From IMG/VR virus record IMGVR_UViG_3300037095_000059: DNA of 64,000 nt; one strand, 5' to 3'. Position numbers and translations under genes: made by a program. The notes under the pieces were generated by a model. The model was not told the DNA's origin. It searched no databases and worked only from the letters and a program-made list of their open reading frames with translations. The stretch comes from a virus. Shown here in pieces: positions 2,898-24,286 of this stretch (position 1 is its first letter; every line of letters starts with the position of its first letter).

Positions 2898-3056
2898 ATG
2901 ATAGTCAAGCAAGGGAGTTTAGGCCCGACCTGGGCGGAGATAGTCGCGGCCAGGAACAAGCGGGAAGACGAGGCGGTCGCCCGGAGATTCAAACGTGACG
3001 AGCGCAGCCAGTGGGACAACCAGTGGGACAACGGGTACGAGAGGGGGCCACGATGA
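2898..3056 (+). CDS. hypothetical protein
   Basis: Frame of ORF 2784..3056. AAGAGG precedes ATG 2898. The product is charged and basic. Confidence 0.5.
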   Translation: MIVKQGSLGPTWAEIVAARNKREDEAVARRFKRDERSQWDNQWDNGYERGPR

Positions 3057-3220
3057 AGCATCTGTCCTGTCCGAAGTGCAGCCGGGTTGTCGATATTGAA
3101 GCGACCTATGTGACCACGGCGATGGTCAACAACGAACTCAAGACCTTCCGCGTGGAACACGGCCACAGTACCACGAAGGGGAGCGAGTTGCAGTGCGCTT
3201 GCGGCCAGTTTCTCAAGTAA
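3053..3220 (+). CDS. small zinc-ribbon protein
   Basis: ATGA overlap with the upstream stop. CPKC ... CACG cysteine pairs. Confidence 0.55.
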   Translation: MKHLSCPKCSRVVDIEATYVTTAMVNNELKTFRVEHGHSTTKGSELQCACGQFLK

Positions 3221-3300
3221 CGCAGATGGGCCGGACAAACCAGTCCGGTTAATGCGGCAGCGCCCGGTTCCAAATGCCGGGGCAACGCAGAGGAGGAACA

Positions 3301-3582: not shown

Positions 3583-3818
3583 TACTCTCAACCCCAACGT
3601 GTGACACTCTCGGCTGCACGAAGACTCACACAGCCTCGAACGGTTGGTGGGTTGTCCGGGTAGTGGACTTTTACAAAGAACTCTGGAAGTGGGAGGACGC
3701 AGAAGCCGTGGGCGTACTCAAGGGCCCGAAGACCTTCCACTTCTGCGGGCAAACGCACGCTCTACAGTTTCTATCCTCAGAGATGGGGAGCAAGACAGAT
3801 AAACCGGAGGAGAAATGA
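3579..3818 (+). CDS. hypothetical protein
   Basis: ORF-track ORF. The TTG start overlaps the upstream TGA. Confidence 0.45.
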   Translation: MILSTPTCDTLGCTKTHTASNGWWVVRVVDFYKELWKWEDAEAVGVLKGPKTFHFCGQTHALQFLSSEMGSKTDKPEEK

Positions 3819-4261: not shown

Positions 4262-5092
4262 ATGCAAATTGAAGATTTTGAACGGTTTATGTCCGAACAA
4301 CTGACGTGCAGCATCGACGACGTACCCGCTGGACAGGGGGCAATCTACTTGATTACGAATCTTGTCAATGGAAAAGTGTATGTTGGGCAGACTTGGGGTT
4401 CGGTGTCCGCTCGGTGGACGAGCCATCTGCACGACGCCGAGAATCGTCCGCAGTTTTATTTTCACCGCGCTCTCAACAAGTACGGGAAGGAAAATTTTGT
4501 AGCGGGGGTTTTGGGGTGGGCCAAAACCGAAGAAGAGTTGAACGATTTGGAAATCCTTTGGATACTGCTTCTCGACTCTGCTGACCGAAAATATGGGTAC
4601 AACTCTACCCACGGCGGAAGAGGAGGAAAGTTCAACAGCGAAGCGAAAGAAAAAATGTCAGAAGCTCATAGACGACGGTATGAAGACCCGGCGGAGCGCA
4701 AGAGGCAGTCTGACTCCATGAAACGAATGTGGTCCGACCCCGACATCAGAAAGAATATACTGGCTGGCCAAACAAAATGGCTTGAAAACCCCCAAGGGAG
4801 GCCGATCCGGTCAAAACGCGCCAAGCAAGTAGCAAACCGCCCGGAGATTAAGCAGAAAATGTCCGAGAACATGACAAAACGGTGGTCTGATCCAGAAAAA
4901 CGTCAGAAACAATCCGAAAAATCGAAGGAAGCCTTGGCCGACCCGAAAGTCCGAAAGAAAATCTCAGAAGGAACACGAAAGGGATTGGAAGAAGCCAAAC
5001 TCCGGCGAAAAGAGCAAGGAATTGTGAAACCAAAGAGAGTTCAAAGCCGAAACGCCTTGGGAAAGTTTATTAAGGAGGAGGGGAAGAAATGA
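4262..5092 (+). CDS. GIY-YIG homing endonuclease with repeated NUMOD-like C-terminal modules
   Basis: GAIYLITNLVNGKVYVGQT ... R ... H ... YGYNS matches the GIY-YIG core. Repeated K(M/I)SE..(R/K)..W.DPE.R modules follow. Confidence 0.85.
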   Translation: MQIEDFERFMSEQLTCSIDDVPAGQGAIYLITNLVNGKVYVGQTWGSVSARWTSHLHDAENRPQFYFHRALNKYGKENFVAGVLGWAKTEEELNDLEILWILLLDSADRKYGYNSTHGGRGGKFNSEAKEKMSEAHRRRYEDPAERKRQSDSMKRMWSDPDIRKNILAGQTKWLENPQGRPIRSKRAKQVANRPEIKQKMSENMTKRWSDPEKRQKQSEKSKEALADPKVRKKISEGTRKGLEEAKLRRKEQGIVKPKRVQSRNALGKFIKEEGKK

Positions 5093-5322
5093 AACACGTC
5101 ATTGTGATTGAAACCTCGGACGACCGGCCCCTGAATAAGCGGACGCTGTGTCTATTCCGAGCGCAAGCTATCTGCGCCCTTCACGACCTGGCGACAAAGT
5201 ACGTGGGTTTGTCCTTCATTAACACGCGGTTCAACGTATCGTCCGCCACCGTCGCTATTCACGAAATGTACAATCTACCGCCCTGGAACCCGGAAACGGG
5301 AACCAGCGAGTCGTCCAGGTAA
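5089..5322 (+). CDS. hypothetical protein
   Basis: ORF-track ORF with ATGA overlap to the endonuclease gene. Its TAA stop lies inside the motif copy at 5313. Confidence 0.6.
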   Translation: MKHVIVIETSDDRPLNKRTLCLFRAQAICALHDLATKYVGLSFINTRFNVSSATVAIHEMYNLPPWNPETGTSESSR

Positions 5323-5327
5323 TGGAC
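5313..5327 (+). repeat. dispersed motif GTCCRRNTAATGGAC, exact
   Basis: gtccaggtaatggac. Its TAA is the stop of CDS 5089..5322. It lies 15 nt upstream of start 5343. Confidence 0.9.
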
Positions 5328-5640: not shown

Positions 5641-5655
5641 GTCCAGGTAATGGAC
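5641..5655 (+). repeat. dispersed motif, exact
   Basis: gtccaggtaatggac. It is intergenic and lies directly upstream of the 31-nt initiation cassette at 5659-5689. Confidence 0.9.
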
Positions 5656-5682
5656 AACCAACCAAAACCCGAAGGAGGGTTT

Positions 5683-5844
5683 ATGAAGCGATGGAAGATT
5701 GATTTCGGAGGCTCTGTAATCGTAGAGGCCGACGACCAATATGAAGCCGAAGCCTTGGCACGAGAGCGCGTTTCTTCTGACGGCGACTGGGCTGAACAGA
5801 GGCGGTGTCGGCAAATCAGCGGTTTTGACTACGAGGAGAACTAA
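5683..5844 (+). CDS. hypothetical protein
   Basis: GAAGGAGGG lies 5 nt before ATG 5683, in the frame of ORF 5620..5844. Confidence 0.55.
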   Translation: MKRWKIDFGGSVIVEADDQYEAEALARERVSSDGDWAEQRRCRQISGFDYEEN

Positions 5845-6060
5845 ATGGGCTTGCAAAACCTGATTACCTATTTCTACCCCGACCATTGGCGCACGAATGA
5901 CCTAGCCGTTGAAGTCAGGCTTCTGGGCAAGCGTGTAGGGTATATTCGTCAAGAACGGCTGCGCGATTTCAAGGACGAGATCGAGAATTTGGAAGATGTG
6001 GCCCGCCGCGCCGTCGATGCCCTTGAGTGTGCAATCGAAACCTTGTCCGAACAGGTCTAA
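5845..6060 (+). CDS. hypothetical protein
   Basis: ORF-track ORF starting 1 nt after the upstream stop. Confidence 0.55.
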   Translation: MGLQNLITYFYPDHWRTNDLAVEVRLLGKRVGYIRQERLRDFKDEIENLEDVARRAVDALECAIETLSEQV

Positions 6061-6082
6061 CCAAAGTTGGCGGAATAACCAT

Positions 6083-6097
6083 GTCCATTAGCCGGAC
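6083..6097 (-). repeat. dispersed motif, exact (reverse orientation)
   Basis: gtccattagccggac. It lies directly upstream of the second copy of the 31-nt initiation cassette (6099-6129). Confidence 0.9.
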
Positions 6098-6122
6098 GCA
6101 ACCAAAACCCGAAGGAGGGTTT

Positions 6123-6389
6123 ATGAAGCAAGTTGTAACAGTCACCGAAATAGAAGGCGAGGGTCTCGAAGCCTTGCTCAACGAAAACGTTCTGATCTAT
6201 TGCATGAACTACTTCTACACCGGCAAGCTCGTCGGAGTCAATGACAAGTTTGTCAAGTTGGAAGGGGCAAAGATCGTGTACGAAACCGGGCCATCCAGCG
6301 AGAAGGACTACAAAGACGCACAGCCTTTGCCGAACAACACCTGGTACGTCCAAACTGCCGCCATCGAGTCCTTTGGCCTCGGAAAGTAG
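6123..6389 (+). CDS. hypothetical protein
   Basis: GAAGGAGGG precedes ATG 6123, in the frame of ORF 6027..6389. Confidence 0.6.
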   Translation: MKQVVTVTEIEGEGLEALLNENVLIYCMNYFYTGKLVGVNDKFVKLEGAKIVYETGPSSEKDYKDAQPLPNNTWYVQTAAIESFGLGK

Positions 6390-6421: not shown

Positions 6422-6625
6422 GGTCGCGGTCGTGGTCGGGGTCGCGGTCGTGGTCGTGGTCGCGGTCGTGGTCGGGGTCGCGGTCGTGGTCGTGGTCGCG
6501 GTCGTGGTCGGGGTCGCGGTCGTGGTCGGGGTCGCGGTCGTGGTCGGGGTCGCGGTCGTGGTCGGGGTCGGGGTCGCGGTCGTGGTCGTGGTCGGGGTCG
6601 CGGTCGTGGTCGTGGTCGGGGTCGT
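6422..6625. repeat. hexanucleotide microsatellite (GGTCGN) x 34
   Basis: An uninterrupted array of GGTCGC/GGTCGT/GGTCGG units with 18-nt higher-order periodicity. It ends 33 nt upstream of the integrase start. Confidence 0.95.
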
Positions 6626-6658: not shown

Positions 6659-7771
6659 ATGTCCAATTTAATCAAACGCGGAGCCTCTTACCACCTGGAC
6701 CTCACATCCGGGGGGAGAAGGCTTCGCTTCTCTCTGGGCACACGCCTCCCCCAGGCCGCTCGAACCCTGGCGCGTCAGATCGAGTGCGCTATCGCTGGCG
6801 GGCCCAAGGCAGAGGAGTGGGAAGTTTTGAAGCTGGTCCTGCCCCCCAAGAGCTTCGCAATCTTGGCCTCGGGCCGGGGTCTCACGGCGCAGCCAAACAT
6901 GGCAGAATTTGAAACCCTCTTTCAAGAAAAACTTGACCGGCGAGTGAAGCTCGGGGAGTTGGCGGAGAGCAGCCGGAACTTGTACCTGTGGGCGGCGGAC
7001 AGGTTCTTCTCCCGCATGGCTGAACTCAAAGTCCGGAAAATGGACGCCGTTACCCCGACTCTGGCCGAGGAGTATTTGATATTCAGGAAAGAAGCCACGT
7101 TGGCCAAAGGCGGCTCGGGGCGCGGGCTTGTGACCGAAACCACCGTACTCCAAGCTGTCTTCAACCTAGCCGTGGAAGAAGGACTCATCAAGAGCAGCCC
7201 CTTGCGGAACAAGTACAAACCAGATTCAGACCCCAAAGGCCCAGACCCATTTACACCGGAAGAGATCGCCAAACTCGACGCGGCGGCTACTGGACCAGAC
7301 AGACTGCCCTTCCTTTTGCTGAGATGGACCGGCCTGAGAGGATCAGACGCGGTGACGGTGCGCTGGTCGTCCATTAACTGGACAGACAGAAAGCTGCACG
7401 TTCAAACTAGGAAGAGAAAGACCTGGGTGGTTGTTCCGCTGTACGGCGAACTGTTGGAGACGTTGGAGGCTGTCTATCTTGGCCGCACCGGAACTGTATC
7501 GGGGGCAGACGACTCTCCCATTCTGTTCGGGCTCTCTCGCGCCAAGCTGTACAAACTCGTCGCTGACTTGGGCATCCGTGCCGGAGTCAAGAACTGCCAC
7601 CCCCACAAATTTCGGGCCTCCCTCGCCTGTACGCTACTCGAACGAGGAGCGACTCTATTCGACGTAGCCAAACTGCTCGGGGACTCACACGCGGTCGTTG
7701 AGAAATTTTACGCAGCAACAACAGACAAGCAGCAGGAACGAATCCGTGGTATAATGGAAAAGTCCGGGTAA
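6659..7771 (+). CDS. int: tyrosine recombinase / phage integrase
   Basis: WTGLRGSD (catalytic Arg) and HPHKFRASLACTLLERGATLFDVAKLLGDSHAVVEKFY (HxxR ... H ... Y). AAGGA precedes the ATG. Confidence 0.9.
   Translation: MSNLIKRGASYHLDLTSGGRRLRFSLGTRLPQAARTLARQIECAIAGGPKAEEWEVLKLVLPPKSFAILASGRGLTAQPNMAEFETLFQEKLDRRVKLGELAESSRNLYLWAADRFFSRMAELKVRKMDAVTPTLAEEYLIFRKEATLAKGGSGRGLVTETTVLQAVFNLAVEEGLIKSSPLRNKYKPDSDPKGPDPFTPEEIAKLDAAATGPDRLPFLLLRWTGLRGSDAVTVRWSSINWTDRKLHVQTRKRKTWVVVPLYGELLETLEAVYLGRTGTVSGADDSPILFGLSRAKLYKLVADLGIRAGVKNCHPHKFRASLACTLLERGATLFDVAKLLGDSHAVVEKFYAATTDKQQERIRGIMEKSG
7031..7045 (+). repeat. dispersed motif, 1-mismatch variant
   Basis: gtccggaaaatggac inside the integrase gene (codes VRKMD). 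Confidence 0.6.
7745..7755 (+). promoter_or_regulatory. extended -10 promoter element (cGTGGTATAAT)
   Basis: TGgTATAAT lies in the 3' end of int, 7 nt before the motif copy at 7762. No good -35 element. Confidence 0.35.
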
Positions 7772-7776
7772 TGGAC
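7762..7776 (+). repeat. dispersed motif, exact
   Basis: gtccgggtaatggac. Its TAA is the integrase stop. GAGGAGG and start 7791 follow. Confidence 0.9.
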
Positions 7777-8127: not shown

Positions 8128-8156
8128 TGGACAAAACTAGGAATGTGTGGTATAGT
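8128..8156 (+). promoter_or_regulatory. sigma70-type promoter with extended -10
   Basis: TGGACA, 17 nt, TGgTATAGT in an intergenic gap. The motif copy at 8175 falls at about +12 to +26. Confidence 0.5.
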
Positions 8157-8174: not shown

Positions 8175-8189
8175 GTCCATTACCTGGAC
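8175..8189 (-). repeat. dispersed motif, exact (reverse)
   Basis: gtccattacctggac between promoter 8128-8156 and the SD/start at 8201. Confidence 0.9.
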
Positions 8190-8200
8190 GGAGGCACCAC

Positions 8201-8581
8201 ATGTCTGAGATGAGCGCAAATGAGAAGCTGGTACGGGCGGCGTGGAATAAACTGACGTTCTGCAACGACTACTACCCTGGTACAGCCTGCACACTTCGTC
8301 TCTATGGAGAATTCAATGGTCACAGAGTAGCTCCGATCATAGCTAAACTTGTCGGCGCGACTAAAGCCTCAACATGGAAAGCCGGTGCCGAATGGATTAT
8401 CAAACGCCAGCAGGAGATCACGGAGTTGCGGGAACAACTTAATCAACTCGTGAATCTAAGCGCGTGCTATTATTGTCCAGAACCTATGCAAATAATGCAG
8501 CGCACGATAGCCCTCGTGCAATCCGCGCTCACAGAGGCGCAACGCGGCATGAAGGAGGAACCACATGGCACCACTGAGTGA
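8201..8581 (+). CDS. hypothetical protein
   Basis: GGAGG precedes ATG 8201. The first 6 codons (MSEMSA) and the 5' UTR are identical to those of CDS 8755. Confidence 0.6.
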   Translation: MSEMSANEKLVRAAWNKLTFCNDYYPGTACTLRLYGEFNGHRVAPIIAKLVGATKASTWKAGAEWIIKRQQEITELREQLNQLVNLSACYYCPEPMQIMQRTIALVQSALTEAQRGMKEEPHGTTE

Positions 8582-8762
8582 CAAAACAATGACCGAGCCG
8601 GGGCATAGTGTACGAATTCCTTGGAACAGCGATACGGTAGAGCTAGTGAGCTTTGGGTATGTTCTCGTCGATAATCCTCAGCCTTTAGATGAGTTTCAAC
8701 GGGAACTGGCTGAAATGGAACTGAGCTTTAGAACCGGCATGACGGAGGCACCACATGTCTGA
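8565..8762 (+). CDS. hypothetical protein
   Basis: ORF-track ORF overlapping both neighbouring genes. Confidence 0.45.
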   Translation: MAPLSDKTMTEPGHSVRIPWNSDTVELVSFGYVLVDNPQPLDEFQRELAEMELSFRTGMTEAPHV

Positions 8763-9525
8763 GATGAGCGCATATCCCTACTACCGCAGAGAGGCGGAAA
8801 TCGTGAAGGAAACAGGCATACTTTTTACGTCGGATAACATTCGAGCGATCCGTGAAGGGCGCAAGACTCAGACACGCCGCGTCTGGAATAAGCAGCCGTA
8901 TATGTCACGAACCAGCCCTCCCAATTTCAACGATACGAAGGTTGGGAATCTGTTCATCTGCCGTGATCCGTTTCCTACCGGAGGTCCGGTTGGACTCGTG
9001 ATCGAGGAGTGTGAATCGCTAGGTGTGTATCACGGCATGGGATCAGACGCTTTCGTTAGAAAGCATGGACCAAAGAATTACGGAGTGGCGGGCGACCGGC
9101 TCTACATCAAAGAGGGCGTGATCGTCCAAAGGAAGGGGTGGTCTGCGTTAACAGAGAGACAAGACGGGACACTCATCGGCTATTACATGGATGGACGCCG
9201 TGTAGAAAATGAGTCAGAGAAGCGCCTGGCGGCTATGTTCATGGCAAAGCGGTACGCTAGGACTTGGCTGGAGATTACGGAAGTTCGCGTAGAGCGTGTG
9301 CAGGACATAAGCGCATACGATTGTTTTGAGGAGGGCATACCGCGTCCACAATCTTTGCTCGATGGAACAAGACTTGGTAGCGAGGTAACTTTGCGCGATA
9401 ATGCACGTGGAGATTACCGTAAACTCTGGGACTCCATCAACAGAAATAAGCATCTATGGTCCAGCAATCCGTGGTGCTGGTGCTTGACGTTCAAGGTATT
9501 ACTGGAAGAGAGGCGGAAGCCATGA
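8755..9525 (+). CDS. hypothetical protein, possible ASCH/PUA-like N-terminal domain
   Basis: IRAIREGRKTQTRR resembles ASCH-type motifs (tentative). The start region duplicates that of CDS 8201. Confidence 0.55.
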   Translation: MSEMSAYPYYRREAEIVKETGILFTSDNIRAIREGRKTQTRRVWNKQPYMSRTSPPNFNDTKVGNLFICRDPFPTGGPVGLVIEECESLGVYHGMGSDAFVRKHGPKNYGVAGDRLYIKEGVIVQRKGWSALTERQDGTLIGYYMDGRRVENESEKRLAAMFMAKRYARTWLEITEVRVERVQDISAYDCFEEGIPRPQSLLDGTRLGSEVTLRDNARGDYRKLWDSINRNKHLWSSNPWCWCLTFKVLLEERRKP

Positions 9526-10197: not shown

Positions 10198-10304
10198 AGC
10201 TCAACATCGCTTTAGCTCTATTCGTGATCCTCGTCTTCGGGGCCGAGTTCTATCACCAGGCGCACACGCCGCCCCAAGCAGAAAATTGTGTTGTGTCCAG
10301 GTAA
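10194..10304 (+). CDS. small signal/TM peptide (36 aa), candidate
   Basis: ATGA overlap with the upstream stop. N-terminus MKLNIALALFVILVFGA. The TAA stop lies inside the motif variant at 10295. Confidence 0.35.
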   Translation: MKLNIALALFVILVFGAEFYHQAHTPPQAENCVVSR

Positions 10305-10309
10305 GGGAC
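10295..10309 (+). repeat. dispersed motif, 1-mismatch variant
   Basis: gtccaggtaagggac. GGAGG and ATG 10319 follow. Confidence 0.6.
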
Positions 10310-10318: not shown

Positions 10319-10771
10319 ATGCGGATTGTCTTTCTCGATTTCGACGGGCCGATTATCCCCTCACTCTCTTATCCTCCCTCTGGAAAACAAGCTAGGGCCT
10401 GGCCGCCCTGCGTCTCCGCTTTGAACCGGATCACAGAAGAGACAGGAGCCAAGATCGTGGTCAGCAGCGTGTGGCGGACTGACGGATTGATGAAGTGTCG
10501 AGAAAATCTCCACTCTTGGGGCGTAGTGGCTCCTGTGATTGGTGTGACCCCTCGTTTATATGAAGGGTATAATCAGCTTCCTCGGGGATTAGAAATCTCA
10601 AAGTGGTTGGAGGAATACGACCGAGAAGAGGTCGAGTCCTTTGTGATCCTGGATGATGACCACGACATGGAACATTTGCTGCCTTTCTTGGTTCACACGC
10701 CTTTTGAAACGGGCCTGACGGAAGAGCACGCCGACCTTGCAATCAAAATTCTAACAGGTGTGTCCAGGTAA
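10319..10771 (+). CDS. HAD-superfamily-like phosphatase
   Basis: The N-terminal MRIVFLDFDGPI matches the DxDx(T/G) motif I of HAD hydrolases. LDDD lies near the C-terminus. Confidence 0.6.
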   Translation: MRIVFLDFDGPIIPSLSYPPSGKQARAWPPCVSALNRITEETGAKIVVSSVWRTDGLMKCRENLHSWGVVAPVIGVTPRLYEGYNQLPRGLEISKWLEEYDREEVESFVILDDDHDMEHLLPFLVHTPFETGLTEEHADLAIKILTGVSR

Positions 10772-10776
10772 TGGAC
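10762..10776 (+). repeat. dispersed motif, exact
   Basis: gtccaggtaatggac. Its TAA is the stop of CDS 10319..10771. It lies upstream of the polymerase start at 10788. Confidence 0.9.
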
Positions 10777-10787: not shown

Positions 10788-13040
10788 ATGACCGACTTCC
10801 ACCTTGATTGGGAAACACGCGCAGTTCCTCCTCTTGACGAGGTGGGACTCGATGTGTATCTGGCACACCCCTCCGCCGAAATCATCATGGGTCAGTATGC
10901 TAGAGGCGACCGGGCGGTCACGGTATGGGAGCCTCACCTCCATCCACAAATCCCCGCCGAGTTAGAAGACGCGCTGCTCGACCCCTTCTGCATCATTCAC
11001 TCTTGGGGAGCTAACTTCGAAAGACAAGTATCCAAGTCGCTTCTGGGCATAGACAAGCCAGCGACTGAATGGGTTTGTACGATGTCCCATGCCAGATACG
11101 CCGGGGTTCCAGGAAAGCTGCATGAGGCGGGCGAGGTCTTGGGTCTCGGGGCCAAGGCCAAGCTGCGCCTCGGCGGGGGGAAAACCGGAAAGGGCGCGGC
11201 GCTCATTCGGTTGTTCTGCGAACCCGTGGACAAGGGCGGGAAAGAAACGTTGTTCGGCCTCTCCGGGCCTACTTTCAATACCCCCTACACCCACCCCAAA
11301 GAGTGGGAACAGTTTCGTGAATACGGAAAAATGGACGTGGAGGCAGAGAGAGCGGCGGGGAAGAAACTAGCACAGTTCCCCATGTCCGAAGAAGAATTGG
11401 AAACCTGGAGACTGGATAGCAAGATCAACGAAACCGGGTGGCCCACGGACTCGCTTCTAGTTCAAAATGCCAGGGAGATTGCTCTACGAGCCCGGGAGCC
11501 GTTGCTGGCCCGGCTCAAGGAAATAACCCAACTCGAAAACCCAAGTTCTCGTGACCAACTGATCGGTTGGGTGCAGGAAAACGGAGGGTATCTCTTCACG
11601 TCCTTGGGAAAAGACTTCATAGCCCGGGCCCTGGCCGGAGAGTGTGACCTGACACCAGAAGGCCGCGAAGTCTTGGAACTCCGCCTGCAAACCGCCAAGT
11701 CCTCTATCTCAAAGTACACGGCGCTCGCCGACATGACCGCCGAGGACGGACGCCTTCGCTATCAGTACACCTACTACGGGGCGCACACGGGCCGCTGGGC
11801 CGCGCACGGAGTCAATGTGGGCAACTTGTTGAAGCCCACCAAAGAAGTCGAGAAGAAGTTGGACCGGGCCATCAATCTTGTCCGGGAAATGGACTACGAA
11901 GGGATCGTCCGCGAGTTCGGAAAACCTTTGAACGTGGCTGCCGGGGTTCAGCGGTCGGCCTTCCGCGCACCCTCCGGATACAAATTCGTCGTGGCGGATT
12001 TGAACGCAATCGAAAATAGAGTGATCGGTTTTCTTGCTAGATGCCCGAGCATTCAGGGGGTGTTCACCAGTACCTTCACCTATCACGGACCCGACTACCC
12101 TGAAAAAGAAATCTTGGATGGGATGCAGTTTCCCTTAGACCCGTACATCCAATTTGCCACTAGAATGTACAACCAGAGCTACCACGATCTGTGGGTGGAA
12201 TGGAAGATCAAGGGAGATTCCAGCAAACGGACTTTCTGCAAACCCCCGGTTTTAGGTGGAGGATACGCCTTGGGCCCCGGGGATGAGTATGTGGATAAGG
12301 ACACTGGCCTGAAATACTGGACCGGCCTACAGGGGTACGCCCGCAACATGGGAATTGAACTCCCCGCTGAAGTGGCTGAGGAGTCCATTGCAGTTCTCAG
12401 AAAAGAGTGGATAGAAGTCACCTGGTTGTGGAAGGATATGGAGAGGGCGGCGGTTTTTGCTATCCGAAACCCGGGACACTTGACGGGGGTAGGGGTCCCG
12501 GAGCTACAGTGGGAAATCCAAAAATTCGAGAAACTCGGGCGCAAAGTTCTGCCCCCGGTGTTGTTCTTTAAGTGTCACTCGGACAAGGTGTTGGAGATGG
12601 TCCTTCCCTCCGGGAGACCTCTGTATTATTGGAGCCCCCGCGTAGAAGTCCAGCATAAAACATGGAATACGGGACAAATTGATCCGAGAACTCTCAAGCC
12701 CATCCTGCGCGAGTACGACCAGGACGTTATCCTCTACAAAGCCAAGAGCCAAAAGACAGGGCAGTGGGTAGAGAAGGACACGTTCGGCGGGCACCTGGTT
12801 GAAAATGGGACTCAGGGAGAAGCGAGAGACATCCTTGTGGACGGACTGAAAGAAGCCGACCGACTAGGTTTTGAAGTGGTCGGCCACACATACGATGAAG
12901 CGGTGACACTGGTTCGAATCAACTCAGGACTTGGAGTGAAAGAACTCTGCGCCTGCCTGTCCAAAGAACACCCGAGATACGGAGGACAGCTTCCCCTCGC
13001 TGCCGAAGGATTTGAAGACGAGGTCTACCGCAAGAATTAG
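10788..13040 (+). CDS. family A DNA polymerase with 3'-5' exonuclease domain
   Basis: DWETRA (Exo I), ADLNAIENRV (motif A), KPPVLGGGYALG (motif B), GHTYDEAV (motif C). 750 aa. Confidence 0.9.
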   Translation: MTDFHLDWETRAVPPLDEVGLDVYLAHPSAEIIMGQYARGDRAVTVWEPHLHPQIPAELEDALLDPFCIIHSWGANFERQVSKSLLGIDKPATEWVCTMSHARYAGVPGKLHEAGEVLGLGAKAKLRLGGGKTGKGAALIRLFCEPVDKGGKETLFGLSGPTFNTPYTHPKEWEQFREYGKMDVEAERAAGKKLAQFPMSEEELETWRLDSKINETGWPTDSLLVQNAREIALRAREPLLARLKEITQLENPSSRDQLIGWVQENGGYLFTSLGKDFIARALAGECDLTPEGREVLELRLQTAKSSISKYTALADMTAEDGRLRYQYTYYGAHTGRWAAHGVNVGNLLKPTKEVEKKLDRAINLVREMDYEGIVREFGKPLNVAAGVQRSAFRAPSGYKFVVADLNAIENRVIGFLARCPSIQGVFTSTFTYHGPDYPEKEILDGMQFPLDPYIQFATRMYNQSYHDLWVEWKIKGDSSKRTFCKPPVLGGGYALGPGDEYVDKDTGLKYWTGLQGYARNMGIELPAEVAEESIAVLRKEWIEVTWLWKDMERAAVFAIRNPGHLTGVGVPELQWEIQKFEKLGRKVLPPVLFFKCHSDKVLEMVLPSGRPLYYWSPRVEVQHKTWNTGQIDPRTLKPILREYDQDVILYKAKSQKTGQWVEKDTFGGHLVENGTQGEARDILVDGLKEADRLGFEVVGHTYDEAVTLVRINSGLGVKELCACLSKEHPRYGGQLPLAAEGFEDEVYRKN
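11880..11894 (+). repeat. dispersed motif, 1-mismatch variant
   Basis: gtccgggaaatggac inside the polymerase gene (codes VREMD). Confidence 0.6.
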
Positions 13041-13052: not shown

Positions 13053-13080
13053 TTGACAGCCAACGATCCTGTGGTATACT
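13053..13080 (+). promoter_or_regulatory. sigma70-type promoter with extended -10
   Basis: TTGACA, 16 nt, TGgTATACT in the gap after the polymerase gene. Confidence 0.55.
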
Positions 13081-13114
13081 GATTTTGCTAGGAAAGTTAG
13101 GAAAAGGAGAGCAA

Positions 13115-13924
13115 ATGTGCAAAGCATTTAGCGGGCTGGTCGATTTCAACGACAAAGTAACTTGGAAGTTGGGTGTGGATTCGCACGCGGACTTGGCCGA
13201 GCTCGGCGGGTACTTGGATACTCAGCTAGGGGAATTTGCCAAGTTCGAGTACACCCCCAAGAATGGCAACTACCTGAACCCCGATGAATGGGTTTTCCGC
13301 TGGGACGAGGACGTGTTGCCCCCGTGGTGCGGGACGAAGCAAAAGGAACTCGCTTTGGCCGCGCACAAAAACTGGCTCAAGCAGTTGGAGAAGTTTATCA
13401 ACCGGCATCCTGTAGTACATCCGTTCAAGCTGCCCCCGCCTTCAATCGAGCGCAAGCACATTCTACTCCTCAAAAAGTGGGGCTCGGTTTGGGGCTCGGT
13501 TTGGGACTCGGTTGGGGACTCGGTTTGGGGCTCGGTTGGGGGCTCGGTTTGGGGCTCGGTTGGGGGCTCGGTTCGGGACTCGGTTGGGGGCTCGGTTCGG
13601 GACTCGGTTCGGGACTCGGTTTGGGGCTCGGTTTGGGACTCGGTTCGGGACTCGGTTTGGGGCTCGGTTCGGGACTCGGTTTGGGACTCGGTTCGGGACT
13701 CGGTTTGGGGCTCGGTTTGGGCGTACACCGGCTCCTTCTTCAAAATCCCGGTCTGGAAGTACGTCAAACACCCCAAGGGCAAGTATCCGTTCCAGCCCCT
13801 TGTTACCCTGTGGAATCAAGGGCTTGTGCCCTCGTTCGACGGCACGACCTGGAGGCTGCACGGCGGACCGAAAGCTGCTGTTTTGTTCTCCATCTCGAAG
13901 GCGGAGTTGGGGAAGTACAAGTAA
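13115..13924 (+). CDS. protein with 20 tandem [W/G/R][G/D]SV tetrapeptide repeats
   Basis: AAGGAG precedes ATG 13115. Non-repetitive N- and C-terminal domains flank [16 protein letters not shown]... . Confidence 0.65.
13478..13717 (+). repeat. 12-nt tandem repeat x 20 (NGGGRCTCGGTT)
   Basis: A perfectly phased 240-nt array, in frame within CDS 13115..13924. Confidence 0.95.
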
Positions 13925-13925
13925 A

Positions 13926-13940
13926 GTCCGGATAATGGAC
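13926..13940 (+). repeat. dispersed motif, exact
   Basis: gtccggataatggac. It is intergenic. GGAGG and ATG 13958 follow. Confidence 0.9.
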
Positions 13941-15011: not shown

Positions 15012-15202
15012 TGGACAAACCGAGGTATTATCAGCTACTTTCGCCCGACGATATTCCGGAAATATACACCTGCGACGGGTGCGGGGACGAAGACGACACG
15101 TTTTTATCCACACCCGAAGGACTCTGGCTGTGCCCCGTGTGTTATACTGCATACCGGGAAGTAAAGTTCCCGAGCAACGAGGAGGAAGAGTGCGAGAACT
15201 AA
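15011..15202 (+). CDS. small zinc-ribbon protein
   Basis: TAATG junction with the upstream gene, in a half-motif context (gagtaatggac). CDGCG ... CPVC. Confidence 0.5.
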   Translation: MDKPRYYQLLSPDDIPEIYTCDGCGDEDDTFLSTPEGLWLCPVCYTAYREVKFPSNEEEECEN

Positions 15203-15948
15203 ACCCACACGATCTGAATTGGGCGGTGCGTTTGCTGCCCGTCCGGCTTCGCAACCAAATGCTTGAGTACGGGCCGCGCCTGGTCCTGGGCGGAGGCTAC
15301 CTTCGGTCCACAGTCTCGGGGGAAAAACCCAACGACCTGGACTTGTTTACGCAGACAGCGGAAGACGCCAAGTTGTTTGCCGAGGCTCTGGCCAAAGAAG
15401 CAAAGAAGAAGACTTATGAAACAGGCAATGCTTTGTCCGTTAAGCTATCGCCCCGGCATTTTGTCCAATATATTCACCGTTGGTCGTTCCCAACCCCGGC
15501 GTACCTTTTGGAGTCCTTCGACTTCACTATCGCTTGTGCCGCAATTTGGTTCGAGTCCGGGAAATGGACAAGCCTGATCGACGACGAGTTCTACTCGGAC
15601 TTGGCGGCTAAACGATTGGTGTACCGTTCGCCCGACCGAAATGAAGACGCGGGTGGGAGTCTCCTTCGGGTCTTGAAGTTCTATCAGCGCGGATTTCGTA
15701 TACCCTTGGATTCCCTGGGGGCTGTCGTCGCCCGAATGGTTGACAGCGTAGACCTAAAAGGGATCGAGGTTATCGACACTGGAGCCTTCGTGGGAACATC
15801 CAGCATCGGGGACACAACTGAAAAGCGGTGGGCTTCTGTAATCACGGGCCTCCTGCGGGAAGTAGATCCCCAGGTTGATCCTGAACACTTCTCCCACTTG
15901 CCCAGCACGCCCGTCGAAGTCAAACCCGAGGAGGAAACCAATGGCTGA
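15190..15948 (+). CDS. Pol-beta-fold nucleotidyltransferase (CCA-adding / poly(A) polymerase head-domain-like)
   Basis: GTG 15190 follows GAGGAGGA. LGGGYLRSTVSGEKPNDLDLF resembles the GGxVRD...DxD nucleotidyltransferase motif. Confidence 0.55.
   Translation: MRELNPHDLNWAVRLLPVRLRNQMLEYGPRLVLGGGYLRSTVSGEKPNDLDLFTQTAEDAKLFAEALAKEAKKKTYETGNALSVKLSPRHFVQYIHRWSFPTPAYLLESFDFTIACAAIWFESGKWTSLIDDEFYSDLAAKRLVYRSPDRNEDAGGSLLRVLKFYQRGFRIPLDSLGAVVARMVDSVDLKGIEVIDTGAFVGTSSIGDTTEKRWASVITGLLREVDPQVDPEHFSHLPSTPVEVKPEEETNG
15555..15569 (+). repeat. dispersed motif, 1-mismatch variant
   Basis: gtccgggaaatggac inside the nucleotidyltransferase gene. Confidence 0.6.
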
Positions 15949-16129: not shown

Positions 16130-16302
16130 ACATCCTTGAAGCGGCGGAGTTCCTGATCCAAGGGAAGAAAATCTTTAGTGAACGTCCAAACTTTCCCGTA
16201 CACCTAGACCCACGGGGGTTGGTGGTTTTCGACAGCGGGGAAGCCCCTCCCGTCCACATTCAAGACCTGTTGTCCGACAAATGGAGCGTGGTAGATGAGT
16301 AA
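16126..16302 (+). CDS. small protein (58 aa), second DUF2829-like copy (tentative)
   Basis: ATGA overlap with the upstream stop. ILEAAEFLIQGKKIF ... W shows the same pattern. It is below the ORF-track cut-off. Confidence 0.4.
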   Translation: MNILEAAEFLIQGKKIFSERPNFPVHLDPRGLVVFDSGEAPPVHIQDLLSDKWSVVDE

Positions 16303-17251
16303 CCTGGCCGAAATTTTAGCCCCAACCCGATTGGACCAAGTCCTGGGCCAGGAACACGCCAAGAAAGCAATAGCGTCCTGGATCGAGAAGGACAACTTCC
16401 CCCGCTGCCAGCTTTACACAGGGCCCGTGGGGACAGGAAAGTCCACTTTGGCCGGGATCGTAGCCCGGGCTTGCCAAGGACCTGGAAGTTGGGAAGGGTC
16501 GGACATCCGGCAGATCAACGCCGGGGTTGTGGGCAAAGTGGACGACATGCGGGCCTTGACGGAGGAAGCGAAAAGCGTTCCTTTCGTCGGGCGATACCGC
16601 GTCTTTATCTTGGAAGAGGCTCAGCGGGTTACAGAGGCCGCAGCCGACGCCCTCCTAGTTCCAATGGAAACCTGTCTGAGTACCGTGTGGATTCTGACAA
16701 GCTCGGAACCGGCAAAACTACCGGCAGCAATCAGGTCCCGGTGCGCGGCAGCTACGTTCGATTTGAAGCCTTTGAACCGGGGGCAGTTAAGTTCTTTGGT
16801 ACGCGACGTTCTTCTCCGAGAATCAATAGACACGGAGAGGGGCGAACCGGGTTTGACCGATTTCTTGTGGAAGCATGGGATCACAGCCCCGCGTGAAATC
16901 CTAGGTGTCCTCGACCAGTACCTGGCGGGCGTCCCCCTCGAAGAAGCAATCCACGGCTCTGAGCACGAGCCTCTGTACCCGGAAATTGCTACCACTGTTC
17001 TGTCCGGGAACTGGACAAAAACCTCAGCTTTGCTCAAGAAGGTCCCGACCGGGGACTATCGGGCGATGGTGGCCGTGGTTTCTGCTAAACTGAGTTGGGC
17101 TCTGCTTGACTCCGACTTTGGACCAAGGGCCGACGCTCTGGCAACGTGCCTGGTCGGCCTCGGGAACTCCGGATTTGCTGACGGGGTTGCGTATTCGAGT
17201 TTGAAAGGTTTGCTGTATAAGGCTTGCAAGGCGTTGGGGGCGAAACAATGA
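16295..17251 (+). CDS. AAA+ clamp-loader subunit (DnaX/HolB-like)
   Basis: GPVGTGKST Walker A, ILEEAQ Walker B / DEAD-like box, RSRC sensor motif. The N-terminal L..v.GQ....l layout is typical of clamp loaders. Confidence 0.8.
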   Translation: MSNLAEILAPTRLDQVLGQEHAKKAIASWIEKDNFPRCQLYTGPVGTGKSTLAGIVARACQGPGSWEGSDIRQINAGVVGKVDDMRALTEEAKSVPFVGRYRVFILEEAQRVTEAAADALLVPMETCLSTVWILTSSEPAKLPAAIRSRCAAATFDLKPLNRGQLSSLVRDVLLRESIDTERGEPGLTDFLWKHGITAPREILGVLDQYLAGVPLEEAIHGSEHEPLYPEIATTVLSGNWTKTSALLKKVPTGDYRAMVAVVSAKLSWALLDSDFGPRADALATCLVGLGNSGFADGVAYSSLKGLLYKACKALGAKQ

Positions 17252-17661: not shown

Positions 17662-17689
17662 GTTGCGCCGGGGCAGAAGTGTGGTATAA
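17662..17689 (+). promoter_or_regulatory. sigma70-type promoter with extended -10
   Basis: TTGCGC, 16 nt, TGgTATAAT immediately after the stop of CDS 17448..17654. Confidence 0.55.
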
Positions 17690-17692
17690 TGA

Positions 17693-17791
17693 TTTTGGTG
17701 GTGATGATTGCGGGCGAGACTCCTTCGGGGTCTGATTGACAACGCAACAGCGGGACGCCCCGTGTACCGATTCAAGTCGGGCCACCACCAA
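17693..17791 (+). ncRNA. candidate structured RNA (cloverleaf-like, closed by a 10-bp stem)
   Basis: TTTGGTGGTG (17693-17702) pairs with CACCACCAAA (17782-17791). Three internal hairpins at 17716-17732, 17750-17761 and 17766-17779. No ORF. It starts a few nt after the promoter. Confidence 0.4.
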
Positions 17792-17884: not shown

Positions 17885-18175
17885 ATGGTAACCGATTTGC
17901 ATGAGTTCTATGAGGAGCACAACGACGAGTTCCTCAAGTTCGACCGAGTCGAGAACAAGCTGTCTCTCCGGCCAGACCTTCACGCCTTTCTGCTGTTGGA
18001 CAAGCTCCTGCCCGGGAAGGAGGACATCGTTGCCTCAGCAGAGCATGACGAAATCTATTTGGACGTGGATGTCGAAAAGCTGCTCGAAGCAGCAAACAAG
18101 GCGGAGTTGATTGATCTCCATCGTTGCGGAGTTCTTGTCTTCTCAGAATATGACAGCCTGGGAATGTTTGTTTAG
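17885..18175 (+). CDS. hypothetical acidic protein
   Basis: AGGAGG lies 5 nt before the ATG. The TAG stop abuts the motif copy at 18175. Confidence 0.6.
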   Translation: MVTDLHEFYEEHNDEFLKFDRVENKLSLRPDLHAFLLLDKLLPGKEDIVASAEHDEIYLDVDVEKLLEAANKAELIDLHRCGVLVFSEYDSLGMFV

Positions 18176-18189
18176 TCCATTAACCGGAC
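18175..18189 (-). repeat. dispersed motif, exact (reverse)
   Basis: gtccattaaccggac. Its first G is the G of the upstream TAG stop. AAGGAG and ATG 18201 follow. Confidence 0.9.
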
Positions 18190-18200: not shown

Positions 18201-19493
18201 ATGAGCATGGATTTTACGGAAGCAGAATTAGTGGCCATCCGAGCGGAATACTGCAAGGGGGCGACCGATACGCAGTTCGAGCTTTTCATCAGCGAATGCA
18301 AAGCGCGAGCCCTGAGACCGGGACCCCATGTCGTTTTCCAACTCAGGAACGCCAAGGAGTGGGACGCAGACACAGGGGCTTCCCGGTTTGTGAAAAAGCC
18401 CTATTGGATTACCACCATTGGAGCTTTGCGGCTTATCGCTCTGCGCACGGGGCAATATGGGGGGTCTACCCCGGCGGAATACATCTACCTCGACGACAAC
18501 GGAGACCCCACTGTTATCTCTCAAATTCCTCTGCCGAGCAAGACCAACAAGTCTCTCCCCCGGGAACCTTGGGCCGTCCGGATTTCTGTCAAGCGCAAGG
18601 ACTTCGACGAGCCAATCACCAGCATTGTCCGGTTTGACTCCGTCGCCGCCACCCAAAAGAGGGATAACATCCTTGTTTTGACAGATATGTGGCAAAAGCG
18701 AGGCGATGCCCAGACCGCCAAATGTTCTGAGGCAGACGCTCTGCGCAAGGCTTTTCCAGAGGAACTCGGGTCGCTCTACCTGTCCGAAGAAATCAAGAAC
18801 GAGGAAGAGCCGCACCAAGCAGCTACCGCCCCGGCCTCCGTCGTCCCCCTTCCTCCCCCTGTGCCAAAAGTGAATCAGGAGCCAGCCAAACCCGTCGAGG
18901 CTCCGAGGCCGAACGAGCCTTGGAGGGGAAACGCTTCAAAACTTCAAGAGGCTGAAATGATTCCCGGGGTAAAAGACCGAGAAAAGCCTGCCGTTCCCCC
19001 CGTCAACCCCGAGTTGGAGAAAGCCCTAGCCGCCCTTCCCCCGGGGACTGTTAAGCCCGCCGCCGAACTTCCTCCTCCAGCAAAGAAGAAAGGTGGTCGT
19101 CCCAAGAAGGTAGAAAGTCCGGATAATGGACAACCGGCCCCGGTCGATCAGGGTATCACCCAGGCGGACATCGAGAATGCGGGGAAACCGGCCCCGGCGG
19201 TAGACGAAGCAGCAAACAAGGCGGCTGCCGAAGAGTTCGTGGAGGCCCTAGACCCAACCCCAACCAAAGAAGAGCAAGCAGGGTTCTCCTCCAGAGTTAG
19301 GGCGCTGGCGGCTGCGGGAGCCAACACCCAGGACTTGAGAAACTACATCCTGGCCGTGGGGCACAAGGACGAGCCCAAGCAACTGACGGTCGCAAACTGG
19401 AATGATGCTTTGACCCGGCTCGAAACCGCCTTGGGAGAAGGCAAAGACAAGCTGTTGGAGGCCACCAAGAATGCGCCATTACCGGCTTTCTAA
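18201..19493 (+). CDS. recT: RecT/Bet-family single-strand annealing protein with long Pro/Ala/Glu-rich C-terminal tail
   Basis: CKGATDTQFELFISECKARALRPG is the typical RecT N-terminal signature. The last roughly 200 aa are low complexity. Confidence 0.75.
   Translation: MSMDFTEAELVAIRAEYCKGATDTQFELFISECKARALRPGPHVVFQLRNAKEWDADTGASRFVKKPYWITTIGALRLIALRTGQYGGSTPAEYIYLDDNGDPTVISQIPLPSKTNKSLPREPWAVRISVKRKDFDEPITSIVRFDSVAATQKRDNILVLTDMWQKRGDAQTAKCSEADALRKAFPEELGSLYLSEEIKNEEEPHQAATAPASVVPLPPPVPKVNQEPAKPVEAPRPNEPWRGNASKLQEAEMIPGVKDREKPAVPPVNPELEKALAALPPGTVKPAAELPPPAKKKGGRPKKVESPDNGQPAPVDQGITQADIENAGKPAPAVDEAANKAAAEEFVEALDPTPTKEEQAGFSSRVRALAAAGANTQDLRNYILAVGHKDEPKQLTVANWNDALTRLETALGEGKDKLLEATKNAPLPAF
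19117..19131 (+). repeat. dispersed motif, exact
   Basis: gtccggataatggac inside the RecT tail (codes SPDNGQ). Confidence 0.9.
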
Positions 19494-20694: not shown

Positions 20695-20709
20695 GTCCAT
20701 TACCTGGAC
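20695..20709 (-). repeat. dispersed motif, exact (reverse)
   Basis: gtccattacctggac. It is intergenic. AAAGGAG and ATG 20721 follow. Confidence 0.9.
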
Positions 20710-22442: not shown

Positions 22443-22457
22443 GTCCGGATAATGGAC
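22443..22457 (+). repeat. dispersed motif, exact
   Basis: gtccggataatggac. It is intergenic. AGGAGG and ATG 22471 follow. Confidence 0.9.
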
Positions 22458-24281: not shown

Positions 24282-24286
24282 TGGAC
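24272..24286 (+). repeat. dispersed motif, exact
   Basis: gtccagataatggac. TAA is the stop of CDS 24153..24281. The overlapping ATG is the start of the helicase C-fragment. Confidence 0.9.

Follow-up and report, generated by a model that had tools for sequence, protein, structure and literature searches.

What does a short DNA motif do that stands ahead of genes in either orientation? The question is raised by positions 5641-6129 of a 64,000-nucleotide (nt) stretch (the window) of the virus record IMGVR_UViG_3300037095_000059, which comes from an uncultured tailed phage. There, two copies of a 31-nt translation-initiation cassette are preceded by a 15-bp motif, GTCC-RGNTAAT-GGAC, in forward orientation before the first copy and in reverse orientation before the second. 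A first-pass annotation had taken this arrangement to argue for an orientation-independent function, such as binding by a dimeric protein, and against a strand-specific RNA signal or a promoter. We find that the motif belongs to an evenly spaced array of sites that are under selection as DNA, both within and between genes. With moderate confidence we read this array as operator-like, roadblock or anchor sites in double-stranded DNA (dsDNA) bound by a two-fold symmetric protein, the cassette being a separate and recent duplication.

The spaced arms GTCC-N7-GGAC occur 52 times in the window, where 1.6 occurrences are expected, and about 51 of these, from position 3654 to 62904, follow the consensus GTCC-RGNTAAT-GGAC (Table 1). 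Copies with zero, one, and two mismatches number 35, 13, and 4 (0, 0.07, and 0.9 expected), a bimodal distribution which indicates that sites are either intact or gone. The 15-mer carries ~24.7 bits of information, and the extended site is a 19-bp quasi-palindrome, YW-GTCC-RGNTAAT-GGAC-WR, present about once per 1.2 kb. A scan of viral contigs with one exact variant recovered 63 loci, many of them from phages whose proteins are 45-95% identical to those of the window and which carry 0.3-1.5 motifs per kb (relatives are cited below by their locus numbers, L001 and so on). The window and 45 related loci provided the family set of 266 non-redundant copies used throughout. The center has drifted slightly in the most distant relatives, two genomes deposited at NCBI (104 and 107 kb) having GTCC-RAATAAT-GGAC or GTCC-GGAAAAT-GGAC, and the 9.7 kb upstream of the window (L184) contain twelve further copies. 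Overall, there are about 90 copies per genome in this ~105-110-kb phage family. The 15-mer was not found in the literature. Resemblances to a DnaA box, a Fur hexamer or a −10-like GATAAT were dropped, since the exact hexamer GATAAT occurs in only 116 of the 266 copies (those with GGATAAT or AGATAAT centers).

Selection acts on the motif at the DNA level, and the conservation of its position is deep. About 45% of copies are intragenic (25 of the 51 window copies and 121 of the 266 family copies). They occupy every possible reading frame; the encoded peptides are, for example, VRIMD, PDNG or SGKWT, and for the opposite orientation VHYLD, PLSG or SIIRT. Where the central TAA would be an in-frame stop codon, TAAT is replaced by AAAT. 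Orthologs that are 45-65% identical in protein often have the motif at the same codons with 15 of 15 bases identical (27602, 34012, and 47551), and across 36 ortholog pairs the motif is 94% identical, compared with 61% for 90 flanking coding bases. For example, the site at 27602 is identical at all 15 positions in L002, L031, and L012, where its flanks are 46-60% identical. The site at 35704 is recognizable in seven of seven gap-free aligned orthologs (decayed in L191), an eighth ortholog, L053, being without it. Comparison with L058 indicates that the motif at 31609 arose by point changes from similar pre-existing codons, and that at 34452 is decaying.

The bases just outside the arms are mirror images of each other. 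Position −2 is mostly T (46%) or C (29%), mirrored at +2 by A (50%) or G (30%). Position −1 is T (42%), A (32%), C (20%) or G (3%), mirrored at +1 by A (43%), T (30%), G (21%) or C (4%). These preferences are equal within and outside genes, and there is no other conservation within 50 nt on either side of the motif. The centers of the two half-sites are 11 bp apart, which is one helical turn. Mirrored flanks together with this distance are what a dimeric DNA-binding protein would produce. On sequence grounds, the core of the first-pass proposal, a dimeric protein reading dsDNA, finds support in these flanks, in the absence of covariation, in the retained center, and in the in-place flips described below.

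Could the motif act instead in RNA, as a GUCC/GGAC hairpin upstream of the Shine-Dalgarno (SD) sequence that adjusts the translation, stability or processing of mRNA? Points in favor are a folding energy of −3.4 to −5.5 kcal/mol for the 15-mer, a distance of 0-8 nt between the end of intergenic copies and the SD, and a 1.9:1 excess of the sense orientation that tracks the direction of transcription. However, the arms are invariant and never covary, the stem is not extended, and the flanking positions −1/+1 are complementary in 77 copies where base frequencies predict 88. Whether position 5 is A or G has no relation to the strand that is transcribed (p = 0.43). In RNA the loop of a reverse copy would differ, yet reverse copies retain the exact DNA complement of the asymmetric center. 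The flank preferences are mirror-symmetric on DNA, the 45% of copies that are intragenic are conserved far from any SD, and no Rfam family matches the motif. We therefore rejected a structured RNA hairpin, in agreement with the earlier claim that the motif is not a strand-specific RNA signal, and consider a role in RNA the least credible of the readings weighed here.

In this tightly packed genome the motif prefers gene boundaries. Compared across the 136 intergenic family copies, the distance from motif end to start codon peaks at 8-19 nt in both orientations. Many intergenic copies start 1 nt within a stop codon or 1-4 nt past it. In 25 forward intergenic copies the motif's TAA is the stop codon of the upstream gene, and in 17 the motif's own ATG is the start codon. 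At gene boundaries the first-pass statement is correct: motifs of either orientation end just ahead of the SD, as in GGACaggag at 29587 (forward) and 38431 (reverse), GGACaaggag at 25957 (forward) and 18175 (reverse), and GGACggagg at 10295 (forward) and 8175 (reverse). As a general rule it fails, since ~45% of copies are intragenic with no SD after them; the contact between motif and SD results largely from genome packing. Among spacers of at least 70 nt, 18 have the motif beside the start and 14 beside the stop, and in 24 it adjoins neither. A general tie to translation starts could thus not be sustained, given that nearly half of the copies lie deep in genes and are conserved there, and that in long spacers stops are about as frequent as starts. 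A start-associated sequence of the Cluster K type was rejected on the same evidence (121 of 266 intragenic, both orientations, stops as often as starts in long spacers).

The 50 gaps between copies in the window have a mean of 1185 bp and a coefficient of variation of 0.61, against 0.97 for random placement (P = 5e-5), and spacing is also even under a gene-aware null (P = 1.5e-4). Five copies lie within the 9.1-kb gene for a 3043-amino acid (aa) protein. Such even coverage suggests a function that requires sites at intervals of about a kilobase, and not the control of a few promoters. We propose a high-specificity dsDNA site whose dimeric, presumably phage-encoded binder would touch both outer half-sites, 11 bp apart, and would in addition recognize or require the A/T-rich asymmetric center. 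The sites would form an array covering the genome, mostly at gene boundaries, where a forward copy could supply a stop with its TAA or a start with its ATG, and in long genes they would be placed within the coding sequence. The most likely role of the array would be that of distributed operators or transcription roadblocks, or of genome-organizing anchors.

Several observations weigh against this proposal, the first of which is orientation. Sense copies outnumber antisense copies 167 to 90 in the family (~1.9:1; 96 and 40 among intergenic copies, 71 and 50 among intragenic ones), a further nine of the 266 lying between convergent genes with no sense assigned. One third are thus antisense, and purely symmetric binding predicts no bias. 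The bias tracks gene direction, being 144:76 in the early/replication block and 23:14 in the oppositely oriented structural block, and this rules out replication-strand polarity of the Chi, KOPS or primase type. Part of it arises because only a forward copy tucks into a gene end through its TAA or ATG. In ortholog comparisons, which are not phylogenetically independent, ~88% of intragenic sense copies are retained and ~29% of antisense ones. It is possible that the motif has a mild functional polarity. Orientation is usually inherited at orthologous positions, and two flips in place were found. In the first, the gene-sense copy GTCCGGGTAATGGAC at 53785 corresponds to GTCCATTATCTGGAC in L017, changing PGNG to PLSG. 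In the second, the antisense copy 5 nt upstream of ORF 43182 (ORF, open reading frame) corresponds in L058 to a forward variant, GTCCAGATAATGGAA, with the right arm GGAA, directly upstream of the ortholog's start. The orientation-independent function claimed at first is therefore supported by the two flips and by the presence of both orientations at equivalent positions, but it is qualified by the sense excess and by the longer retention of sense copies.

The relation to promoters is a further difficulty. Three copies of a promoter-like repeat, TGTGGTATAAT, are found (13070, 17680, and 30773), and cgTGgTATAAT at 7745 is a fourth element of this type. These extended −10 elements, TGTGGTATAATGA, are probably real promoters, and the copy at 13053-13080 has a perfect TTGACA 16 nt upstream. 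The motif adjoins only two of the four, lying upstream of 30773 and downstream of 7745, so classical operator control of initiation cannot be its main role. In the early region, motifs are found 8-21 nt upstream of TTGACA-like boxes, at no fixed distance, and a generic promoter and terminator scan gave results near shuffle levels and was uninformative. In agreement with the first-pass annotation, the motif itself is not a promoter: it stands in both orientations with nothing else conserved within 50 nt. Promoters of the sigma-70, ECF or phage RNA polymerase type were rejected for this lack of a partner and for the existence of the separate TGTGGTATAAT repeat.

The information content of ~25 bits also exceeds what a repressor would need to find its sites in the phage or host genome, and it fits an enzyme that cuts or modifies DNA as well. 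The motif might be the target of a nickase, of a base- or backbone-modification enzyme, or of the phage tyrosine recombinase. Very high information and near-invariant positions are typical of nucleases and recombinases, and inverted arms around a 7-bp asymmetric center match the geometry of tyrosine-recombinase core sites, those of the lambda and Cre types having inverted arms around a short asymmetric spacer. The phage recombinase has apparently intact catalytic residues (by-eye reading), and its gene contains two motifs and ends in a third. None of the contigs bearing a homolog is longer than 110 kb, so the recombinase may not be an integrase. Other phage genes encode a PP-loop/PAPS-reductase-like protein, Endonuclease VII, and GIY-YIG and HNH nucleases, and the motif center flips in place. 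However, the arms of only 4-6 bp are shorter than known recombinase arms, ~90 active recombination sites would scramble the genome, and no methyltransferase was found. Homology breakpoints between the window and its relatives are not clearly enriched within 25 nt of a motif (3 of 30 against 1.3 expected, P = 0.14). An enzyme target, moreover, leaves the even spacing and deep positional conservation unexplained, and we regard it as unlikely.

A different way to account for the excess information is that the sites do not act as operators but make up a new kind of genome-wide cis system, within a phage that brings a replisome and a sigma factor of its own. In one version, the sites would be regular loading or barrier points for a DNA-tracking machine (clamp-coupled late transcription, replication priming or fork management). 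In the other, they would be a sequence mark letting phage proteins tell phage from host DNA. If true, this would explain why sites persist in essential genes despite fixing five codons, along with the even spacing and the high information content. We think such a system rather unlikely.

The search for a protein that would bind the array as proposed adds to the points against it. No repressor-type protein was found in the 64-kb window when all of its proteins were compared with Pfam, PHROGs, and NCBIfam, the sigma factor being the sole regulator, and no L5-type repressor (helix-turn-helix plus stoperator domain) was detected in the window by the same three resources; the 9.7 kb upstream (L184) were covered by precomputed Pfam marks only. 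One candidate emerged, ORF 35287-36015, which lies between the clamp and sigma genes and is present in all relatives. The best PDB matches to its predicted structure (predicted local distance difference test score, 84) in Foldseek are Spo0J-parS, the ParB DNA-binding domain with parS, and Noc (E-values 0.6-9, template modeling scores 0.3-0.46), and sequence and profile searches return nothing ParB-like. At an E-value of at least 0.6, the model makes this ORF a weak candidate binder that resembles ParB/Spo0J/Noc DNA-binding domains only weakly. By analogy with MrpR of SPbeta, the tyrosine recombinase may be considered another candidate (PMC10516654).

That no phage-encoded binder was found in the window is in keeping with a host signature, by which the motif would be the site of a host protein or a host-wide repeat adopted by the phage. 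Uptake sequences and highly iterated palindromes have a density and placement comparable to those of the motif, which occurs about once per 1.2 kb in both orientations, in and between genes. In representative bacterial genomes, among the matches listed, only singletons in unrelated taxa and no two-copy stretch were found, which is weak evidence against a host origin. Also against it are the conservation of motif positions between phages and the drift of the center along with phage phylogeny, and we judge a host signature to be improbable.

The motif might also have no selected function, being a recombination linker or a tiny copy-and-paste element that drives mosaic gene exchange. In L021, different genes lie between conserved flanks with a motif at every junction, the phage has RecT and exonuclease genes, and duplicated initiation cassettes adjoin motifs. 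Yet motif-free gene starts have as many breakpoints as motifs do, and a recombination hot spot was rejected on the negative or weak breakpoint test (3 of 30 against 1.3, P = 0.14). Intragenic motifs come from point changes in similar codons and not from clean insertions (31609 compared with L058). No flank beyond 2 nt is common to the copies, so nothing points to a target-site duplication. The spacing is even, and ancient copies remain near-perfect while their flanks fall to ~60% identity, which requires purifying selection. We consider an element without selected function very improbable.

What, then, of the cassette beside which the motif was first seen? As originally described, the 31-mer CAACCAAAACCCGAAGGAGGGTTTATGAAGC is identical at 5659-5689 and 6099-6129. 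It occurs exactly twice (no match in 100 shuffles, with up to three mismatches allowed), and each copy carries an SD, GGAGG, and the start, ATG AAG C, of one of two unrelated ORFs. The first copy is preceded at 5641-5655 by the forward motif GTCCAGGTAATGGAC with a gap of 3 nt, and the second at 6083-6097 by the reverse motif GTCCATTAGCCGGAC, the reverse complement of GTCCGGCTAATGGAC, with a gap of 1 nt. The significance attached to the cassette was overstated. It was not found in the related loci L001-L063 or in the viral and metagenome scans, single-copy versions included, and is present in near-identical contigs of the same population (L184 and L185). The L021 ortholog of ORF 6123-6389 (95% identical) retains the reverse motif but has another leader and AAA instead of AAG as codon 2, and the genes between the conserved flanks differ from those of the window. 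The cassette copies bracket a two-gene segment, 5683-6060. Judged by these differences in L021, they look like a recent, local, strain-specific duplication, or short conversion or recombination, of one translation-initiation region that stands outside the motif system. The cassette begins beside a motif only because the motif fills the remainder of each short spacer, and the opposite orientations are those of the copy already present at each boundary. The 31-mer is predicted to form a hairpin, AAACCC-GAAGGA-GGGUUU (−8.2 kcal/mol, z = −2.7), in which part of the SD and the beginning of the AUG are paired and which may partly occlude the SD.

Another initiation cassette, made up of GGAGGCACCACATG and six initial codons (MSEMSA), is duplicated ~2 kb away at 8187-8221 and 8741-8775 (34 of 35 positions identical), with a diverged third copy between them at 8551-8585. 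The two main copies head different genes, and the motif precedes only the copy at 8187 of the duplicated region GACGGAGGCACCACATGTCTGAGATGAGCGCA (8187 and 8741). An event of the same kind is known in Cluster O phages, where a 17-bp sequence that relatives have only once stands as a direct repeat on both sides of a gene (PMC4351075). The 88-aa protein of ORF 6123-6389 is 95% identical in a relative whose neighboring proteins are 50-70% identical, which by this comparison is unusually strong conservation for a small ORF without assigned function. It has a weak match to the MM0924 family (E = 0.0013), and a look-up of the protein matched one short contig. Between this ORF and the tyrosine recombinase gene, ~11 tandem copies of an 18-nt unit, (GGTCGY)n, occupy 6422-6625. 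The array is present in L021, and in L193 the gap between the ORF 6123-6389 ortholog and the recombinase gene is 96 nt, compared with ~270 nt in the window, so the array there must be much shorter or absent. It may be a low-complexity ORF, or else non-coding sequence such as an attachment region or arm sites for the recombinase.

The window covers the middle part (~22,332-86,331) of a 110,535-bp Joint Genome Institute (JGI) metagenome contig, Ga0334798_000076 of JGI 3300036787, that represents a ~110-kb uncultured tailed phage. Our ORF model places ~100 genes in it, on the plus strand up to 44036 and on the minus strand from 44191, and gene identities are from Pfam and PHROGs. Megablast of 16 kb against cultured phages gave no match, and the DNA polymerase is only ~33% identical to those of Nazgul- and Salvo-type phages. 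One window protein has more than 100 homolog clusters, all on contigs of at most 110 kb and several on contigs of 104-110 kb, and among the contigs bearing these homologs the family was not seen within any larger host contig. This is an abundant uncultured phage family, and ~80% of the genes in the lineage have no known function. No transfer RNAs were found in the window.

Other features of the window are recorded here in their own right. A plus-strand gene at 274-1086 encodes a PP-loop ATPase (SGGxxS) with weak similarity to PAPS reductase, which could confer a DNA- or nucleotide-modification activity on the phage. The UvrD-like helicase is divided between two ORFs, 22705-23736 for the N-terminal part and 24281-25132 for the C-terminal part, with three tiny ORFs between them. 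One ORF of 37 aa (23942-24055) is found again in several relatives in different genomic settings, which suggests that it is a small mobile insertion. In-frame coding tandem repeats are found at 2047-2274 (a 15-nt unit repeated 15 times, in a pentapeptide-repeat protein) and at 13478-13721 (a 12-nt unit repeated 20 times, giving (WGSV/RDSV)n in ORF 13115-13924). Cumulative GC skew climbs steadily over the whole window, including the minus-strand gene block, so strand composition is independent of transcription direction. An iteron-like run of GGTATTGG/GGATTGG/GGTATGG units at ~30027-30060, upstream of ORF 30117-30746 and conserved in L002, L191, L005, and L012, adjoins replication genes and is a candidate replication origin. 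At 3221-3280 the plus strand carries a self-cleaving ribozyme of the Type-P5 twister class (Rfam RF02684; score 46.9 bits, gathering threshold 37.6, E = 1.2e-6), placed directly after ORF 3053-3220 and within the sole long motif-free stretch (~3.8 kb).

Table 1. Motif copies, cassettes, promoter-like elements, and annotated genes of the window.
Feature	Position	Strand	Remarks
Motif GTCCGGGTAGTGGAC	3654-3668	+	its GTG is the start of ORF 3663-3818; conserved in L021
Motif	5313-5327	+	its TAA is the stop of ORF 5089-5322; 15 nt before ATG 5343
Motif	5641-5655	+	precedes cassette copy 1
Motif	6083-6097	-	precedes cassette copy 2; reverse also upstream of L021 ortholog
Motif	7031-7045	+	within tyrosine recombinase gene (encodes VRKMD); kept in L021
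Motif	7369-7383	-	within tyrosine recombinase gene; absent in L021
Motif	7762-7776	+	its TAA is the recombinase stop; 8 nt after cgTGgTATAAT, 14 nt before ATG 7791
Motif	8175-8189	-	11 nt before ATG 8201; downstream of promoter-like site 8128-8156
Motif	10295-10309	+	9 nt before ATG 10319
Motif	10762-10776	+	its TAA is a stop codon; 11 nt before DNA polymerase ATG 10788; conserved in L020, L021
Motif	11880-11894	+	within DNA polymerase gene; kept in L020, L055, L021, L036 at 46-55% aa identity
Motif	13926-13940	+	1 nt after stop codon, 17 nt before ATG 13958
Motif	15555-15569	+	within ORF 15190-15948; TAAT to AAAT, avoiding in-frame stop
Motif variant	17002-17016	+	within clamp-loader gene
Motif	18175-18189	-	overlaps stop codon; 17 nt before ATG 18207 (RecT-like)
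Motif	19117-19131	+	within RecT-like gene (encodes PDNG)
Motif	20695-20709	-	11 nt before ATG 20721
Motif	22443-22457	+	13 nt before ATG 22471
Motif	24272-24286	+	its TAATG ends ORF 24153-24281 and begins ORF 24281-25132
Motif	25804-25818	-	within ORF 25654-25986
Motif	25957-25971	+	3' end of ORF 25654-25986; 11 nt before ATG 25983
Motif variant	26425-26439	-	within ORF 26344-26625
Motif	27602-27616	+	within PD-(D/E)XK nuclease gene; kept in 7/7 orthologs compared
Motif	29189-29203	+	its ATG starts ORF 29198-29596
Motif	29587-29601	+	its TAA is a stop codon; 10 nt before ATG 29612
Motif variant	30570-30584	+	within ORF 30117-30746
Motif variant	30755-30769	+	5 nt upstream of TGTGGTATAAT; arrangement conserved in L191, L192
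Motif	31609-31623	-	within primase-helicase gene
Motif	31911-31925	-	within primase-helicase gene
Motif	34012-34026	-	within clamp gene; 15/15 identical in L019, L030, L008 at 53-56% aa identity
Decayed motif	34452-34466	+	within clamp gene; intact copy in orthologs
Motif	35704-35718	+	within ORF 35287-36015
Motif	36083-36097	+	intergenic, after ORF 35287-36015
Motif	37249-37263	+	within ORF 36969-37319
Motif	38431-38445	-	3' end of Endonuclease VII gene; then aggag and ATG 38456
Motif	39854-39868	+	its TAATG ends ORF 39690-39863 and begins ORF 39863-40048
Motif variant	40233-40247	+	within exonuclease-like gene 40041-41519
Motif	42178-42192	+	10 nt before ATG 42203
Motif	43162-43176	-	5 nt before ATG 43182; L058 ortholog has opposite orientation
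Motif	44036-44050	+	at stop of ORF 43710-44036, before bidirectional terminator
Motif	44802-44816	+	within minus-strand ORF 44191-44832
Motif	47551-47565	-	within 3043-aa gene; 15/15 identical in L037, L009
Motif	49390-49404	-	within 3043-aa gene
Motif	50479-50493	+	within 3043-aa gene, antisense to gene
Motif variant	51413-51427	-	within 3043-aa gene
Motif	53785-53799	-	within 3043-aa gene; flipped in place in L017 (SPGNGQ vs GPLSGQ)
Motif	55823-55837	+	within minus-strand ORF 55789-56184
Motif	56867-56881	+	within minus-strand ORF 56239-56952
Motif	58128-58142	-	directly after stop of minus-strand ORF 58142-58504
Motif	61718-61732	-	16 nt upstream of start of minus-strand 1018-aa gene
Motif	62904-62918	+	9 nt upstream of start of minus-strand ORF 61800-62894; same antisense orientation in L004
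Cassette copy 1	5659-5689	+	SD GGAGG, ATG of ORF 5683-5844 (53 aa, MKRW...), predicted hairpin AAACCC-GAAGGA-GGGTTT
Cassette copy 2	6099-6129	+	SD, ATG of ORF 6123-6389 (88 aa, MKQV...)
Extended -10 promoter-like element TGTGGTATAATGA	13070-13089, 17680-17699, 30773-30792, ~7743-7753		
Bidirectional terminator	44144-44168		between the two gene blocks
GIY-YIG nuclease	4262-5092		Pfam/PHROGs
Tyrosine recombinase	6659-7771		Pfam/PHROGs
Family A DNA polymerase	10788-13040		Pfam/PHROGs
Clamp loader	16295-17251		Pfam/PHROGs
RecT-like protein	18207-19493		Pfam/PHROGs
HNH nuclease	19471-20004		Pfam/PHROGs
SSB	21274-21726		Pfam/PHROGs
Split UvrD-like helicase	22705-23736 / 24281-25132		Pfam/PHROGs
PD-(D/E)XK nuclease	26825-28012		Pfam/PHROGs
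Primase-helicase	31503-33377		Pfam/PHROGs
Sliding clamp	33885-34955		Pfam/PHROGs
ECF-like sigma factor	36401-36919		Pfam/PHROGs
Endonuclease VII	37956-38459		Pfam/PHROGs
Exonuclease	40041-41519		Pfam/PHROGs
3043-aa protein	44825-53956	-	

In kind, the motif would belong with the dispersed phage repeats that are bound by a regulator, and it lies outside every named family. Its nearest match, again in kind, is the 17-bp dyad repeat of Cluster O phages (Corndog and relatives), TGTTCGG-N3-CCGAACA, of which more than 30 copies are spread over a ~70-kb genome; a dimeric binder was predicted by the authors (PMC4351075). Both repeats are inverted, with a short center that in Cluster O is often asymmetric and whose orientation is not tied to transcription, both have intergenic, near-start, and mid-gene copies, and the Cluster O repeats are not involved in rearrangements. 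Both kinds of phage encode a clamp and an AAA ATPase. The likeness is one of kind only, as the sequences are unrelated and the phage lineages differ. Cluster O arms are 7 bp around a 3-bp center, whereas those of the motif are 4-6 bp around a strongly conserved 7-bp asymmetric center. The motif is about twice as dense, and its even spacing and deep intragenic conservation are unreported for Cluster O. Corndog also lacks the tyrosine recombinase found in this phage.

The stoperators of Cluster A phages, the sites of the L5 repressor, are more than 20 near-invariant dispersed sites of 13-14 bp, mostly in short intergenic spaces and often touching a start or stop codon, and are thought to silence the genome by blocking transcription elongation (PMC9283540). 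The motif resembles them in its many near-invariant dispersed copies (51 in 64 kb), about half of them at gene boundaries. However, each stoperator is an asymmetric site for a monomer, always aligned with transcription, and loses its function when it is reversed (PMC9283540). The motif has palindromic arms and symmetric flanks, and with one third of its copies antisense (167:90) it does not share that alignment.

Phage P1 has 22 dispersed, asymmetric 17-bp C1 operators (PMC8546580), and in SPbeta ten MrpR peaks in chromatin affinity purification sequencing (ChAP-seq) lie at promoters and share the 15-bp SPBRE motif (PMC10516654). In both, one repressor serves many scattered sites in a ~94-135-kb genome, to which the motif array can be likened, and MrpR illustrates that a recombinase-fold protein can be the binder (PMC10516654). 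P1 is a non-integrating prophage with a tyrosine recombinase, which may also apply to this phage, for which no integrated copies were seen. The P1 and SPbeta sites number only 10-22 and lie at promoters, whereas the motif has ~90 copies per genome, half of them intragenic and mostly away from recognizable promoters. The start-associated sequences of Cluster K phages are a short repeat immediately upstream of many starts, adjoining or including the SD, in one orientation. The motif shares the position upstream of many starts, at the SD, and differs in standing in both orientations and just as often far from starts. These sequences are mentioned in the Cluster O study (PMC4351075).

This phage family is an unusually clean case: each genome has ~90 near-perfect sites, public data contain more than 100 divergent relatives, and intragenic sites have stayed in place over long evolutionary times. 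What is gained by covering a genome with such sites, which protein reads them, and whether they can serve as a portable roadblock or tag are all directly testable. For annotation, the motif marks gene boundaries and supplies stop and start codons in a poorly annotated lineage. To our knowledge, dispersed phage repeats are mostly without known function, and a binder has been identified only for stoperators, P1 operators, and SPBRE. Compared with all of these systems, the motif is set apart by its palindromic arms around a conserved asymmetric center, its higher density, its even spacing, and its deep intragenic conservation.

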